Positions 29,630 through 34,493 of a DNA stretch of 64,000 bases are shown here, in pieces. Below the pieces are notes generated by a model. That model ran no database searches and had not been told where the DNA came from. It was given only the letters and a program-made list of their open reading frames with translations. The stretch's first letter is position 1, and every line of letters begins with the position of its first letter. This DNA comes from Chloroflexota bacterium (GTDB lineage: Bacteria; Chloroflexota; Dehalococcoidia; UBA2979). Location of the stretch: positions 59,063-123,062 of the forward strand of contig JAQCIU010000006.1 of the NCBI GenBank assembly GCA_027593235.1, written 5' to 3'. The translations under genes were made by a program, and so were the position numbers.

Positions 29630-30829
29630 CTACTCGGTAATTTCGATCACGATGCCGGAACCAACCGTGCGCCCACCCTCGCGAATCGCGAATCGCAGAC
29701 CGGTCTCAATCGCGATCGGTGACACCAGCTCAATCGCCAGCTCCACGTCATCGCCCGGCATCACCATCTCCGTGCCCTCGGGCAGCGTTGCCGTCCCCGT
29801 CACGTCCGTCGTGCGGACGTAGAACTGCGGACGGTAGCCGTTGAAGAACGGCGTGTGACGGCCGCCTTCTTCCTTGGACAACACGTAGACCTGACCACGG
29901 AATTTCTGGTGAGGCGTAATCGAACCGGGCGCCGCCAGTACCTGGCCACGCTCGATGTCCTCACGCTCAATACCGCGCAGCAGGCAGCCGACGTTGTCGC
30001 CAGCCTCGCCCGTCGTCAGCGTCTTGTTGAACATCTCGACACCGGTCACGGTCGTCGTGTGCGTCGGCTTCAGGCCGACGATCTCGATCGACTCGCCGAC
30101 CTTCACCACACCGCGCTCGATGCGGCCGGTCACCACGGTACCGCGGCCCTTGATGCCGAACACGTCCTCGATCGCCATCAGGAATGGCTGATCCTTCGCG
30201 CGCTCCGGCTGCGGGATGTACTCGTCGACCGCCTTCATCAGGGCCAGGATCGGCGCGAACTCCGGTGCGTTCAGATCGGTTGACTCGGACTCCAGCGCTG
30301 CAAGCGCGGAACCACGAACGATCGGAACGTCGTCACCCGGGAACTCGTACTCGGTCAGCAGTTCGCGCATCTCAAGCTCAACCAGCTCAAGCAACTCTTC
30401 GTCATCCATCATGTCGACCTTGTTCAGGAAGACCACGATGTTCGGCACCTCGACCTGACGCGCAAGCAGCAGGTGCTCGCGGGTCTGCGGCATCGGACCG
30501 TCCGGGGCGGCGACCACCAGGATCGCTCCGTCCATCTGGGCGGCGCCGGTAATCATGTTCTTGATGTAGTCGGCGTGCCCGGGGCAGTCCACGTGGGCGT
30601 AGTGACGGGCAGCCGTCTGATACTCCACGTGCGTGATGGCGATGGTGATACCACGCGCCTTCTCTTCCGGCGCGTTGTCGATCTGCTCGAACGAACGGAA
30701 GTCCGCGCCACCCTGCAACGAGAGCACTTTCGTGATCGCCGCAGTCAGCGTCGTCTTGCCGTGGTCGACGTGACCGATCGTGCCGATGTTGGCGTGTGGC
30801 TTGTCTCGCTGGAAAACAGCCTTACCCAT
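29630..30829 (-). CDS. tuf: Elongation factor Tu
   Basis: [28 protein letters not shown]. Confidence 0.99.
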
Positions 30830-30941
30830 CGCGGTCTCCTACTCTTCCCCATCCCGACGGGGGTTCTGTTTCGCGGGCTCTCACCCGCCGATTCAATGAT
30901 CTTGATCGACGCTCAACTCAACGAACCCCAACACGGTTAAC

Positions 30942-31016
30942 TGGAGCCCGCTATGAGAGTTGAACTCATGACCTCGTTCTTACCAAGAACGCGCTCTACC
31001 ACTGAGCTAAGCGGGC
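30942..31016 (-). tRNA. tRNA-Thr(GGT)
   Basis: Cloverleaf GCCCGCT...CGTTC-TTGGTAA-GAACG...GTTCAAC...AGCGGGCTCCA. Confidence 0.96.
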
Positions 31017-31194
31017 CTCGTGAGCCGGGCGCGTGCCGGCCGTCTAGTGTGCCGTTCAGTCGCGCTGCGCGCTACCGGACGTGGTTGATCTTCGCGTCTC
31101 GCTCCTACGTCTGCCCGCTACCCGCGCCTCTCAACGGAGACCCGTACCTCGGGCTGCCCTGCTGAGCTCGTCACTCCGGAGGGGTAATCGGTGA

Positions 31195-31280
31195 TGGTGC
31201 AGGGGGCAGGATTCGAACCTGCGTAGCCGTAAGGCGGCGGATTTACAGTCCGCTGGAATTAGCCACTCTCCCACCCCTGC
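31195..31280 (-). tRNA. tRNA-Tyr(GTA)
   Basis: Anticodon loop CTGTAAA, long variable arm, GTTCGAATC, encoded CCA. Confidence 0.96.
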
Positions 31281-31296
31281 AAGATCCTCCGCGGGT

Positions 31297-31372
31297 TGGA
31301 GCCCGAGAGGGGATTCGAACCCGCTAACCTACCGATTACAAATCGGTTGCGCTGCCATTGCGCCACTCGGGC
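31297..31372 (-). tRNA. tRNA-Thr(TGT)
   Basis: ACCGA-TTTGTAA-TCGGT anticodon arm, GTTCGAATC, encoded CCA. Confidence 0.96.
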
Positions 31373-31460
31373 CGACACCCACTACTACGCCGTCACGAGG
31401 CCGTCACGAGGCTGTAGAGAGCAAGACGCACCCCGATACACGGAGTGCGCACCGCCGATG

Positions 31461-31488
31461 ATTATATCGACACCGATCGAGGGGTCAA
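31461..31488 (-). promoter_or_regulatory. Sigma70-type promoter of the tRNA-tuf operon
   Basis: TTGACC-16 bp-TATAAT. Confidence 0.7.
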
Positions 31489-31599
31489 CGCGGATCCCAC
31501 CAATTCTCGCGCAAATCCGCCCGCAAACGCCAACTCACCCGCCCGCGCCACCCACGAGGCCCGCGCGTCACGCCCCGGAAACCGAGCGCGAACCTCTGC

Positions 31600-33042
<1,443 letters not shown>

Positions 33043-33236
33043 CGCGACCCTCCTCGGACGGCGAAGCGCGGCGAGGCCGACGTCGGCGCAGGCGCGCACG
33101 TCGTCGCCAACTCGCGATAAATCAACAATCGGGGGTGATTCGTGATCGAAGGCAGTCGCCCCATGGGTGGGCTCCGTTCTGGCGGATCGGATGTTGCTGC
33201 AGGAGAGCCGGGCGCGATTGCGTTCGCGTCAGCGGC

Positions 33237-33314
33237 TTACGTACACGTACAGCAACAGCGCCCGTTTCCAGGGCGGTCGGATCGGTCGCTCAGCACGGAA
33301 ATCATCGTTGCCAT
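33237..33314 (-). CDS. Putative Cys-rich leader peptide of cysS (25 aa)
   Basis: MATMISVLSDRSDRPGNGRCCCTCT*, four Cys codons in the last six, immediately upstream of cysS. Confidence 0.7.
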   Translation of the reverse strand: MATMISVLSDRSDRPGNGRCCCTCT

Positions 33315-33321
33315 CGAGCGC

Positions 33322-33807
33322 TTATCGTACACGCTCTTCCACCAGTGCCACCGCCATCGCGGCGATCGCGCGGCCCTCGCCAATCATGCCCATGCCCTCG
33401 TTCGTCGTCGCCTTCACGTTCACCCGATCGATGCCCAGGCTCAGCACCCCCGCCAGCGCCTCCCGCATCGCCTGGATGTGCGGCGCCAGCCGTGGACGTT
33501 CCGCGATCACCGTCACGTCCACGTTCACCACGCTGATCTGCCGCGAAGACAGCAGCCGCGCCACCCGCGTCAGCAACTCGCGGCTATCGATGCCCGCCGT
33601 CTCCGGCTCCCCCGGCGGGAAGTGCTGCCCGATGTCCCCCTCCCCGGCAGCGCCGAGGAGTGCGTCAATCACCGCGTGAATCAGCGAATCCCCGTCCGAG
33701 TGCCCCTTGAGCTGCGGCGTACCCGCGATCTCGATCCCACCCAGCCGCAGTTGGCCGCTCTCGTCCTCCCGGAACGGGTGGATGTCATACCCGAAGCCGA
33801 CCCGCAT
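33322..33807 (-). CDS. ispF: 2-C-methyl-D-erythritol 2,4-cyclodiphosphate synthase
   Basis: GFGYDIH, GHSDGD, DIGQHFP, NVKATT. Confidence 0.97.
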   Translation of the reverse strand: MRVGFGYDIHPFREDESGQLRLGGIEIAGTPQLKGHSDGDSLIHAVIDALLGAAGEGDIGQHFPPGEPETAGIDSRELLTRVARLLSSRQISVVNVDVTVIAERPRLAPHIQAMREALAGVLSLGIDRVNVKATTNEGMGMIGEGRAIAAMAVALVEERVR

Positions 33808-34493
33808 TAGCCGTCTCCTCTCACCCGGGCAGCCAGCAACGCGCGCGCAAGCGCCAGATCGAACGGCCCGGTCACCTTGAAGTTGGCGGGGTCGCCGTCC
33901 ACCACCATCACCGTGCCGCCGTCCGCCTCGATCATCGCCGCGTCGTCCGTCACATCCGCCTGCGCCATCGCGTGCGCCGCGCGCAGCCGGCCCGCGTTGA
34001 ACCCCTGTGGCGTCTGCGCCGCGCGCACCGTGCTGCGATCGATCGTCGCCAGCACCCGCCCGTCCTCGTCGATGCGCTTCAGCGTGTCCACGACCGGCAC
34101 CACCGGTACCGCTGCCCCATGTTCGCGCGCCGCCTCAAGCACCCGCGCGCACAACTCCGGCGTCACCAGTGGGCGCGCCCCGTCGTGCACCAGCACCCAG
34201 TTCGCCTCCTGCGCCGCAGCCAGGCCCGCCGCCACCGAGTCCTGGCGACGCGTCCCGCCGGCCACGCACCGCACCTCCAGCCCCTCGCGCTCCGGAACCA
34301 GGCTCGCCAGCCGCTCGTGCAGCACCAGCGGTGCAACGATCACCAGCACATCCAGCTCCGGCAGATCGGCCACACCCCGCAGCGCGCGCTCGATCACCGA
34401 CGCCCCGTCCAGATCCGCCCAGAGCTTGTCCTGCCCACCCATCCGGGTCGAACGCCCCGCCGCCAGTACGATCGCCGCAACGATGTCGCTCAT
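33807..34493 (-). CDS. ispD: 2-C-methyl-D-erythritol 4-phosphate cytidylyltransferase
   Basis: LAAGRSTRM, RQDSV, VHDGARP, QTPQGF, TDDA. Confidence 0.96.
   Translation of the reverse strand: MSDIVAAIVLAAGRSTRMGGQDKLWADLDGASVIERALRGVADLPELDVLVIVAPLVLHERLASLVPEREGLEVRCVAGGTRRQDSVAAGLAAAQEANWVLVHDGARPLVTPELCARVLEAAREHGAAVPVVPVVDTLKRIDEDGRVLATIDRSTVRAAQTPQGFNAGRLRAAHAMAQADVTDDAAMIEADGGTVMVVDGDPANFKVTGPFDLALARALLAARVRGDG

Follow-up and report, generated by a model that had tools for sequence, protein, structure and literature searches.

A candidate cysteine-sensing leader open reading frame between ispF and cysS in a Chloroflexota bacterium

The present study concerns a 64,000-nt stretch of DNA from a Chloroflexota bacterium (the window; its genome is G000 below) and, within it, the gap between ispF and cysS. 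Previously, an original prediction made from the letters of this stretch alone had placed there a 25-codon leader open reading frame (ORF) ending in Cys codons, and had proposed that stalling of ribosomes on these codons switches the expression of cysS. Our comparison with related genomes indicates that the leader is a real, conserved element, which we read as a ribosome-mediated cysteine sensor. The cysteine-sensing part of the prediction is thus retained. Its target, however, is revised: the element would originally have controlled cysE and cysS together, and in the window it would act on cysS through a 41-codon ORF.

The gap between ispF and cysS

The genes and features of the locus, in the order of transcription, are given below.

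34493-33807, minus strand: ispD
33322-33807, minus strand: ispF (2-C-methyl-D-erythritol 2,4-cyclodiphosphate synthase; Pfam YgbB, E = 1.2e-60)
33237-33314, minus strand: leader ORF of 25 codons plus stop, MATMISVLSDRSDRPGNGRCCCTCT, with its ATG at 33314 and its TAA at 33239-33237
33165-33236, minus strand: C-rich spacer of 72 nt from the leader stop to the next start (44% C, 25% G)
33175-33172, minus strand: Shine-Dalgarno sequence (SD) GGAG of the 41-codon ORF, inside the C-rich spacer
33039-33164, minus strand: 41-codon ORF MGRLPSITNH...AVRGGSR, a probable cysE remnant, whose TGA stop overlaps the cysS ATG as ATGA
33055-33048, minus strand: SD-like GAGGAGGG, the own SD of cysS
31600-33042, minus strand: cysS (cysteine--tRNA ligase; TIGR00435, 466 bits against a cut-off of 340; domains tRNA-synt_1e, DALR_2 and CysS_C)

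The ispF stop codon (33324-33322) and the cysS ATG (33042-33040) enclose 279 nt, and the 25-codon ORF lies in this gap just as predicted. Its 3′ end reads TGT TGC TGT ACG TGT ACG TAA, with four Cys codons (33257-33249 and 33245-33243) among the last six. The prediction had also remarked that three of these four codons are TGT despite the dominance of TGC in the genome. This proved correct: TGT makes up only 18% of the Cys codons in long ORFs of the genome (1484 TGT vs 6876 TGC), and its share in the leader is thus unusual. One clear tRNA-Cys was detected in the host genome (3.39 Mb, 68% G+C, 90% complete). Since its anticodon is GCA, TGT is expected to be read by wobble.

The absence of a T-box and of a U-tailed terminator, as well as the C-richness of the transcript past the stop (44% C in the spacer), agree with what had been read from the letters. 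An Rfam search of the gap at E <= 10 returned neither a T-box nor any other family, and RF00230 (T-box) had no match at E <= 10 in 30800-34000, on which ground we rejected a T-box reading. A match of the gap to the P4 small RNA (21.5 bits vs a gathering score of 37) is sub-threshold and was dismissed. Furthermore, a scan of 32900-33900 found no sigma-70-like consensus promoter and no U-tract terminator, and the flanks of the hairpin P1 that follows the leader stop are C/U-rich without a U run.

Taken alone, the sequence of the gap is of limited weight. Three Cys codons in a row occur in some frame 388 times in the 3.39-Mb genome, and the whole gap (296 nt) folds no better than its shuffles (z = -0.35). 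Because Cys runs are common and the gap as a whole folds like shuffled sequence, the case rests on conservation and not on the lone sequence. A genome search, with a crude gene mask, for other noncoding short ORFs (sORFs) with a Cys-rich C terminus gave 18 candidates and no evidence of a regulon. Three candidates other than the leader lie within ~320 nt of a gene, their neighbors being ferredoxin-thioredoxin reductase beta, a CoA-transferase and a gene without a Pfam match.

Conservation of the leader and history of the operon

In what follows, G numbers denote related genomes, L numbers loci or metagenome contigs, and X numbers contigs from other studies. CysS was searched in 99 genomes of the same family, of which 87 matched at E <= 1e-100, and the upstream DNA was examined in 83 of the 87; G062 and G075 (cysS at a contig end) and G052 (upstream stretch incomplete) were left out. 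In 53 loci, ispF lies directly upstream, with a gap of at least 100 nt in 27 and of less than 100 nt in 26. Short ORFs (8-80 codons; ATG, GTG or TTG start) with clustered Cys were counted in the 27 longer gaps, on the sense strand, on the antisense strand and in 200 dinucleotide shuffles, as follows.

At least two Cys in five residues: sense 15/27; antisense 4/27; shuffles mean 2.19, maximum 7
At least three Cys in five residues: sense 8/27; antisense 0/27; shuffles mean 0.08, maximum 2
At least four Cys in five residues: sense 4/27; antisense 0/27; shuffles mean 0, maximum 0

These counts overstate the number of events, as related genomes are not independent.

The original prediction had looked to relatives for a Cys-rich short ORF upstream of cysS, and such ORFs were found. 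The closest homologues are MLTTISVLRARTDRPETGRCCCVCP in G003, which precedes cysS, and MSTMNAVLRARSDRPRDGRCCCVCS in G001, which precedes cysE-cysS. Both are of the CCCxC type, as are the leaders of the metagenome loci L231, L232 and L233. Metagenome contigs were searched with ispF, and 18 loci at 65% identity or more were examined. An in-frame Cys-rich sORF is present in 10 of them; examples end, directly before the stop codon, in ...GRCCCVCL (L231), ...GRCCCACL (L232, before cysE-cysS), ...ERCCCACS (L233, before cysS), ...CRRCCC (L234 and L236, like G023), ...SCACPWGRVAR (L240) and ...SCACARCLRG (L241 and L242). L243 has CC only, and five of the 18 loci have no leader or reach a contig edge.

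All six genus-level copies of the leader have 25 codons without indels, and the spacer behind them is rich in indels. Across genera, the leaders have only the C-terminal Cys cluster and the operon position in common; for example, the similarity between the CRRCCC end of G023 and CACCRCTCPTGR of G014 is limited to the C-terminal Cys. ORFs ending in ...CVC occupy the same place in other families of the class (G025, G028, G034, G030 with ...RDTCVC, G455 and G317). The 24 leaders contain 42 TGT and 31 TGC codons, and each of the 24 has TGT as its final Cys codon. The regions upstream of cysE were surveyed across the class in 15 genomes, where leader occurrences are to be read as "at least". Among strain contigs from other studies, X4 (32900-33258 and 33288-33500) and X6 (33060-33497) carry the same arrangement, with no strain difference listed in them between 33194 and 33351; X3 covers the whole stretch but may be a source sample. 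As a marker of distribution we also tried the nucleotide pattern TGCGYSTGTN{4,5}GGGG, which matched in 155 of the 401 genomes searched in the class. Of 29 loci sampled, no more than 3 precede cysE and the rest adjoin unrelated genes, and the pattern was set aside as too unspecific.

Several related gaps depart from this layout. In L235 (1630-1806) and L237, a deletion fuses the leader ATG to a 56-codon ORF ending ATGA on the cysS start; these loci look like natural mutants in which cysS would be coupled to the leader without Cys sensing. The ispF-cysS gaps of genus g2 have Cys near the start of an ORF of ~50-60 codons (MAQCRCCC... in L008/G024, CC only in L243), and the ORF tail RPAHATS..HETGWTR.LAD is conserved between L008 and L243, a layout unlike that of leaders with C-terminal Cys. 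In the ispF-cysE gaps of L009 (G014) and L120 (G041), two tandem copies of CATCCCGTAACATG lie immediately ahead of the leader start (MDGMPTL...) or at it, and may be a duplicated promoter or start region. The ispF-cysE gap of L004 (G002, a low-G+C genome) and of L238 holds a 34-codon ORF, MQCSIICIARHLDDPYCGDN...KKFLF, with three scattered Cys and no cluster, a strong hairpin in its 5′ part and a U-rich end, which may be a diverged form of the leader.

The gene that follows the leader provides a rationale for the 41-codon ORF. The common gene order in the family is ispF-cysE-cysS, and cysE and cysS mostly overlap or abut. The leaders of G001 and L232 are each followed by cysE (TIGR01172, 230 and 238 bits, respectively; cut-off 210.65) and then by cysS. 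The SD, ATG and first codons of the 41-codon ORF (MGRL vs MGWL) agree with the start of G001 cysE in 19 of 22 positions, its final 10 nt equal the end of G001 cysE (10/10), and CAGAACGGA is conserved ahead of the cysE start in relatives. In global alignments of the G000 and G003 spacers with G001 cysE, only the two ends align and the interior is not alignable; the 41-codon ORF itself has no Pfam family match. Its counterpart in G003 has 50 codons, and that in L233 has 11 codons and ends ATGA on cysS. Elsewhere, the 90%-complete genome has a single cysE-like sequence, with 50% identity and on a different contig.

We infer from these comparisons that the ancestral order was ispF-leader-cysE-cysS, with the element originally controlling cysE-cysS, and that cysE was lost from the locus while its translation start and its coupling to cysS were kept. 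The 41-codon ORF is thus probably a cysE remnant. An intact leader without a full cysE is seen in four lineages, namely G000, G003, L233, and G023 with L234 and L236.

No consensus promoter was found in the scan described above. A TAnnnT hexamer, TACGAT, lies in the last codons of ispF (GTA CGA TAA, about 33329-33324), 6-9 nt upstream of the leader start. In 23 of 59 related loci, ispF ends in the rare codons GTA CCA or GTA CGA followed by TAA or TAG; GTA makes up only 6.7% of the Val codons here. This TAC(G/C)AT hexamer could be the -10 element of the cysE-cysS transcript, and its position would fit a leaderless or near-leaderless sORF, without being proof of one. A near-consensus promoter, TTGACC-16 nt-TATAAT, is found directly 3′ of cysS (31461-31488, minus strand), where it precedes three tRNA genes (30945-31372, minus strand) and an EF-Tu gene (29630-30829).

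A CysS search of the genome contigs returned distant relatives only (<=52% identity). A second gene resembling that for cysteinyl-tRNA synthetase encodes ~400 aa and lacks the C-terminal anticodon-binding domain (L317:320-1510, i.e., C32:69119-70309, outside the window). It scores 387 bits with TIGR00435 and 314 bits with MshC, the latter below that model's cut-off, and a counterpart at ~40% identity is present in most genomes of the family.

RNA structure, mechanism and alternatives

The structural elements around the Cys codons are as follows.

33259-33275, minus strand: hairpin P0, inside the leader ORF, pairing CGCCC (33275-33271) with GGGCG (33263-33259)
33248-33257, minus strand: 5′ arm of the Cys helix, UGUUGCUGUA, comprising the first three Cys codons and one further base
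33207-33236, minus strand: hairpin P1, starting directly after the stop and 6 nt past the last TGT
33192-33201, minus strand: 3′ arm of the Cys helix, UGCAGCAACA, with its end 16 nt ahead of the SD GGAG

The complementarity that had been pointed out between the Cys codons and 33201-33192 amounts to 10 pairs, including one G-U, and it is formed in minimum-energy folds. For the 70 nt from 33190 to 33259, the folding energy is -26.7 kcal/mol (z = -2.42; 2 of 200 shuffles as good), and for P1 alone it is -14.2 kcal/mol (z = -2.34; 1 of 200 as good). The downstream pairing of the Cys codons is 0.73, compared with a mean of 0.35 when the downstream sequence is shuffled, and 1 of 60 shuffles reaches 0.73. 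P0 ends 1 nt before the first Cys codon and is kept in six of six copies, with a compensatory change from C-G to U-A in L233. P1 pairs GCCG with CGGC and CGCGA with UCGCG, and each of the six genus-level homologues has a hairpin at its place. Leaders of the CxC type from other genera have a G-rich hairpin that starts 4-5 nt past the last TGT (16 of 16). In minimum-energy folds of the cysE-type relatives, the partner of the Cys codons is a segment beside the SD whose end lies 8-24 nt ahead of the cysE ATG; thus CUGCGCGUG pairs with CACGCGCAG, after which comes AAGGGAGC, and GCGUCUG pairs with CAGACGC. A strain variant in X4 (33193 G>A, plus strand) replaces one G-C pair in the Cys helix by G-U.

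Two other pairings of the original prediction fared differently. The complementarity of CGGGCGC (33264-33258) and GCGCCCG (33215-33209) is present; the crossing stem that they were thought to form is better explained by the local hairpins P0 and P1. Likewise, UUAUCGCGA (33120-33112) and UCGCGAUGA (33047-33039) occur as described, both inside the cysE-remnant-like ORF, but the proposed pairing over the cysS start is absent in the fold.

Since relatives carry the Cys-rich sORF and no T-box is found here, a ribosome-mediated cysteine sensor is the best reading, and we give a probability of about 0.7 to the element being a Cys-sensing leader ORF of some kind, as judged by sequence. Starting from the features seen in the sequence, from how they are conserved and from how the operon changed, we infer that the leader is translated, that ribosomes stall on it and by which output it acts. 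The leader ORF would sense charged tRNA-Cys. When Cys-tRNA is plentiful, ribosomes would complete the leader and depart, and the Cys codons (33257-33248) would then pair with 33201-33192 around P1. The leader and the spacer would thereby close as one long duplex beside the ribosome-binding site of the next ORF, causing poor initiation. When Cys-tRNA is scarce, a ribosome waiting on UGU/UGC would keep the duplex open and free the region before the next start. Translation of the 41-codon cysE-remnant ORF would then pass to cysS via the ATGA stop/start overlap, and would shield the mRNA from Rho. We chose translational attenuation as the output because the closest tested system, the mycobacterial poly-Cys sORF, acts on translation. 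This output, passed to cysS via the ATGA coupling, is a tentative model to which we give somewhat less than an even chance. The fixed spacing between codon and hairpin suggests a geometric relation: with the footprint dimensions that we assume for the ribosome, one holding the last UGU in its A site would meet the hairpin at the mRNA entrance.

A number of observations weigh against this interpretation. A 1-nt deletion in L235 and L237 places the Cys codons outside the ATG frame, the ORFs of genus g15 have lost most of their Cys, and the 26 of 53 family gaps behind ispF that are short have no leader. The conserved Cys-run ORF that had been expected in relatives is there, but the covarying stems expected alongside it are nearly absent, at 1-2 compensatory pairs; RNAalifold on nine sequences did recover the helix of the Cys codons with their downstream partner (CUGCGC:GCGCAG) and the G-rich hairpin (GGGG:CCCC), with almost no covariation. 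The downstream pairing is uneven as well: only 7 of the 24 leaders beat all but at most 2 of 60 shuffles, 6 of the 24 pair less than their own shuffles, and no clear alternative fold that would exclude this pairing emerged. Duplex energies show a weak preference for cognate over non-cognate arms, the cognate arms exceeding the non-cognate mean in 18 of 24 leaders but ranking first or second in only 5 of 24. Masking the Cys codons in the manner of a stalled ribosome did not raise the computed accessibility of the SD and AUG (means over the 24 leaders: 0.47 free, 0.49 masked, 0.52 with a control mask). The partner of the Cys codons lies 2-10 nt upstream of the SD in relatives and 16 nt upstream in G000, where the SD itself is not sequestered. 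Finally, cysS has its own strong SD-like GAGGAGGG and might for that reason be independent of the coupling.

The main rival to the translational route is Rho-dependent transcription attenuation or polarity by the same sensor, for which the tna operon is the model. Here the C-rich, G-poor spacer (33236-33165) would serve as the Rho entry site, and a ribosome stalled on the Cys codons beside the stop, or the fold that it imposes, would bar Rho and let RNA polymerase continue into the next ORF and cysS. The composition of the spacer (44% C, 25% G), a rho gene in the genome (PF07497, 111 bits), the lack of an intrinsic terminator (terminator-like sites in 20 kb of the window number 11, vs 7.7 ± 3.1 in shuffles, and are thus not enriched) and the position of the Cys codons, always a few codons from a stop or a hairpin, are all consistent with this route. 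A study of actinobacterial Cys leaders that lack a terminator proposed the same (Seliverstov et al. 2005; PMC1262725). On the other hand, the tested mycobacterial Cys leader is reported not to be termination-based (10.1101/834739). Furthermore, stalling would free the 3′ arm and expose more C-rich RNA to Rho, not less, and neither a rut (Rho utilization) site nor a termination point is demonstrable by sequence. We consider the Rho route unlikely, though less so than the three rival explanations discussed next.

A different explanation is that the leader has become a relic in the window, regulating nothing since the loss of cysE, with cysS expressed from its own strong SD. The absence of cysE from the locus, the GAGGAGGG ahead of cysS and the shuffle-like folding of the whole gap would all fit. 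But the leader has stayed intact in each of the four lineages without a full cysE, three of which (G000, G003 and L233) also retain a small ORF ending ATGA on cysS, and the leader has no listed variant among strains. We regard a relic as improbable.

Slightly more improbable still is a structured RNA that binds a protein or a ligand or that signals processing, in which UGC-GNN-UGU and a G-rich hairpin merely happen to read as Cys and translation is incidental. This would account for the conservation across families of TGCG(C/T)(C/G)TGT with a GGGG hairpin at 4-5 nt, when the position of the ORF stop is not conserved. It would also account for the conserved RP..GR codons of the G000 group, which form P0 and of which L233 keeps the pairing and not the residues, and for L235 and L237, which retain the nucleotides and lose the frame. 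It is hard to reconcile, however, with the fixed start codon and the indel-free 25-codon frame in six of six copies, with Cys codons that switch between TGT and TGC yet stay Cys, and with leaders of different genera (G023 and G014) that have only the C-terminal Cys in common. The enrichment is strand-specific and frame-dependent, no Rfam family matches the gap, and the bare nucleotide pattern is unspecific, with cysE downstream of no more than 3 of the 29 matches sampled from the class.

A functional Cys-rich micropeptide, for example a metal-binding or redox-active one, is very improbable: some non-Cys residues (SVL, DRP) are conserved in the genus-level group, but they coincide with an RNA hairpin and are altered in L233, leaders of different genera have no more in common than the Cys run and a place ahead of cysE/cysS, and no regulon or further copies of a Cys-rich sORF were found in the genome. 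A riboswitch, the precursor of a ribosomally synthesized and post-translationally modified peptide, and a chance ORF were also considered and rejected.

Returning to the cysteine sensor, a bolder proposal is that it represents a distinct class of terminator-less cysteine attenuators, old and widespread in one Chloroflexota-like class, which would hold before cysE-cysS the place that the Cys T-box has in Firmicutes. Its core would be UGC-NNN-UGU with a G+C-rich hairpin at a fixed 4-6 nt, a rare wobble codon and a roadblock would sense jointly, and it would survive the loss of cysE via a mini-ORF coupled to cysS. We think such a class conceivable, but doubtful at present.

Comparison with known cysteine-sensing systems

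Cysteine is sensed by T-boxes in Firmicutes, by CysB-type proteins in Proteobacteria and by poly-Cys leader ORFs in Actinobacteria. In Bacillus, the cysE-cysS operon occupies the same place, after ispD-ispF, and is preceded by a Cys-specific T-box that senses the charging of tRNA-Cys. Uncharged tRNA is bound by a T-box directly, without any need for translation. In contrast, no T-box was detected in the ispF-cysS gap of the present genome. Three T-box-like matches lie outside the window (C61:62997-63275, C44:16717-16954 and C30:15928-16251; 67, 42 and 29 bits, respectively, below the gathering score), and the host probably uses T-boxes for other genes.

The likeness to the trp-type leaders (trpL, hisL, leuL, thrL and pheL) lies in the clustering of the cognate codons near the leader end, in a segment that can pair downstream. 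Unlike those systems, the gap lacks both a U tract and a terminator/antiterminator pair. The remaining parts of an attenuator are absent here as they were from the predicted Cys leader ORFs of Mycobacterium, P. acnes and B. longum (Seliverstov et al. 2005; PMC1262725).

The closest tested system comprises the leaderless poly-Cys sORFs of mycobacteria, Ms5788A/Rv0815A, together with Rv2334A before cysK1-cysE (Canestrari et al. 2020; bioRxiv 10.1101/834739). In that preprint, the poly-Cys tract is reported to base-pair with the SD region of the gene that follows, and regulation to work via translation and not termination. Our leader resembles these sORFs in having its Cys codons at the 3′ end, before cysteine-metabolism genes and without a terminator, in a Cys tract predicted to pair before the next gene in a long stable leader duplex, and in a possible leaderless start (TAnnnT 6-9 nt upstream). 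It differs in belonging to another phylum, without sequence similarity, and in having 2-5 interrupted Cys codons (CCCxC, CxC) where the mycobacterial tracts have up to eight consecutive ones. Furthermore, the pairing partner lies beside the SD here and over the SD in mycobacteria, and the placement of the Cys codons between two hairpins at fixed spacing is unlike the mycobacterial arrangement as there described. The predicted targets are cysE-cysS (in the window, cysS alone via the remnant ORF), whereas the function of the mycobacterial sORFs was tested.

Another relevant system is uORFC-8-2, a motif described in Rhodobacterales (Brewer et al. 2021, RNA Biol; PMC8632094). It is likewise an upstream ORF with conserved Cys codons in a stem, located before cysS and read as ribosome-mediated attenuation. 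It belongs to Alphaproteobacteria, and its two stems end in an intrinsic terminator with a U run; no such terminator was found here. In addition, its two Cys codons are in tandem at about positions 14-15, as opposed to CCCxC at positions 20-24 in our leader.

A literature search on Chloroflexota and on upstream ORFs of cysS found no Cys leader described in this lineage; the original prediction, too, was aware of no such description for cysS in Chloroflexota. The present findings suggest that a large, mostly uncultured lineage places a leader ORF over both cysteinyl-tRNA synthetase and the enzyme that begins cysteine synthesis, without a terminator, and they offer a case of a sensor retained through operon remodelling. 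They also provide an annotation rule for a small unannotated ORF, a compact candidate for a cysteine-responsive element from a high-G+C organism and, in the fixed spacing of codon and hairpin, a concrete mechanistic hint that is relevant to any translation system. Set beside the T-box, the trp-type leaders, the mycobacterial sORFs and uORFC-8-2, the proposed switch is of a known type, and its lineage and operon context are new.

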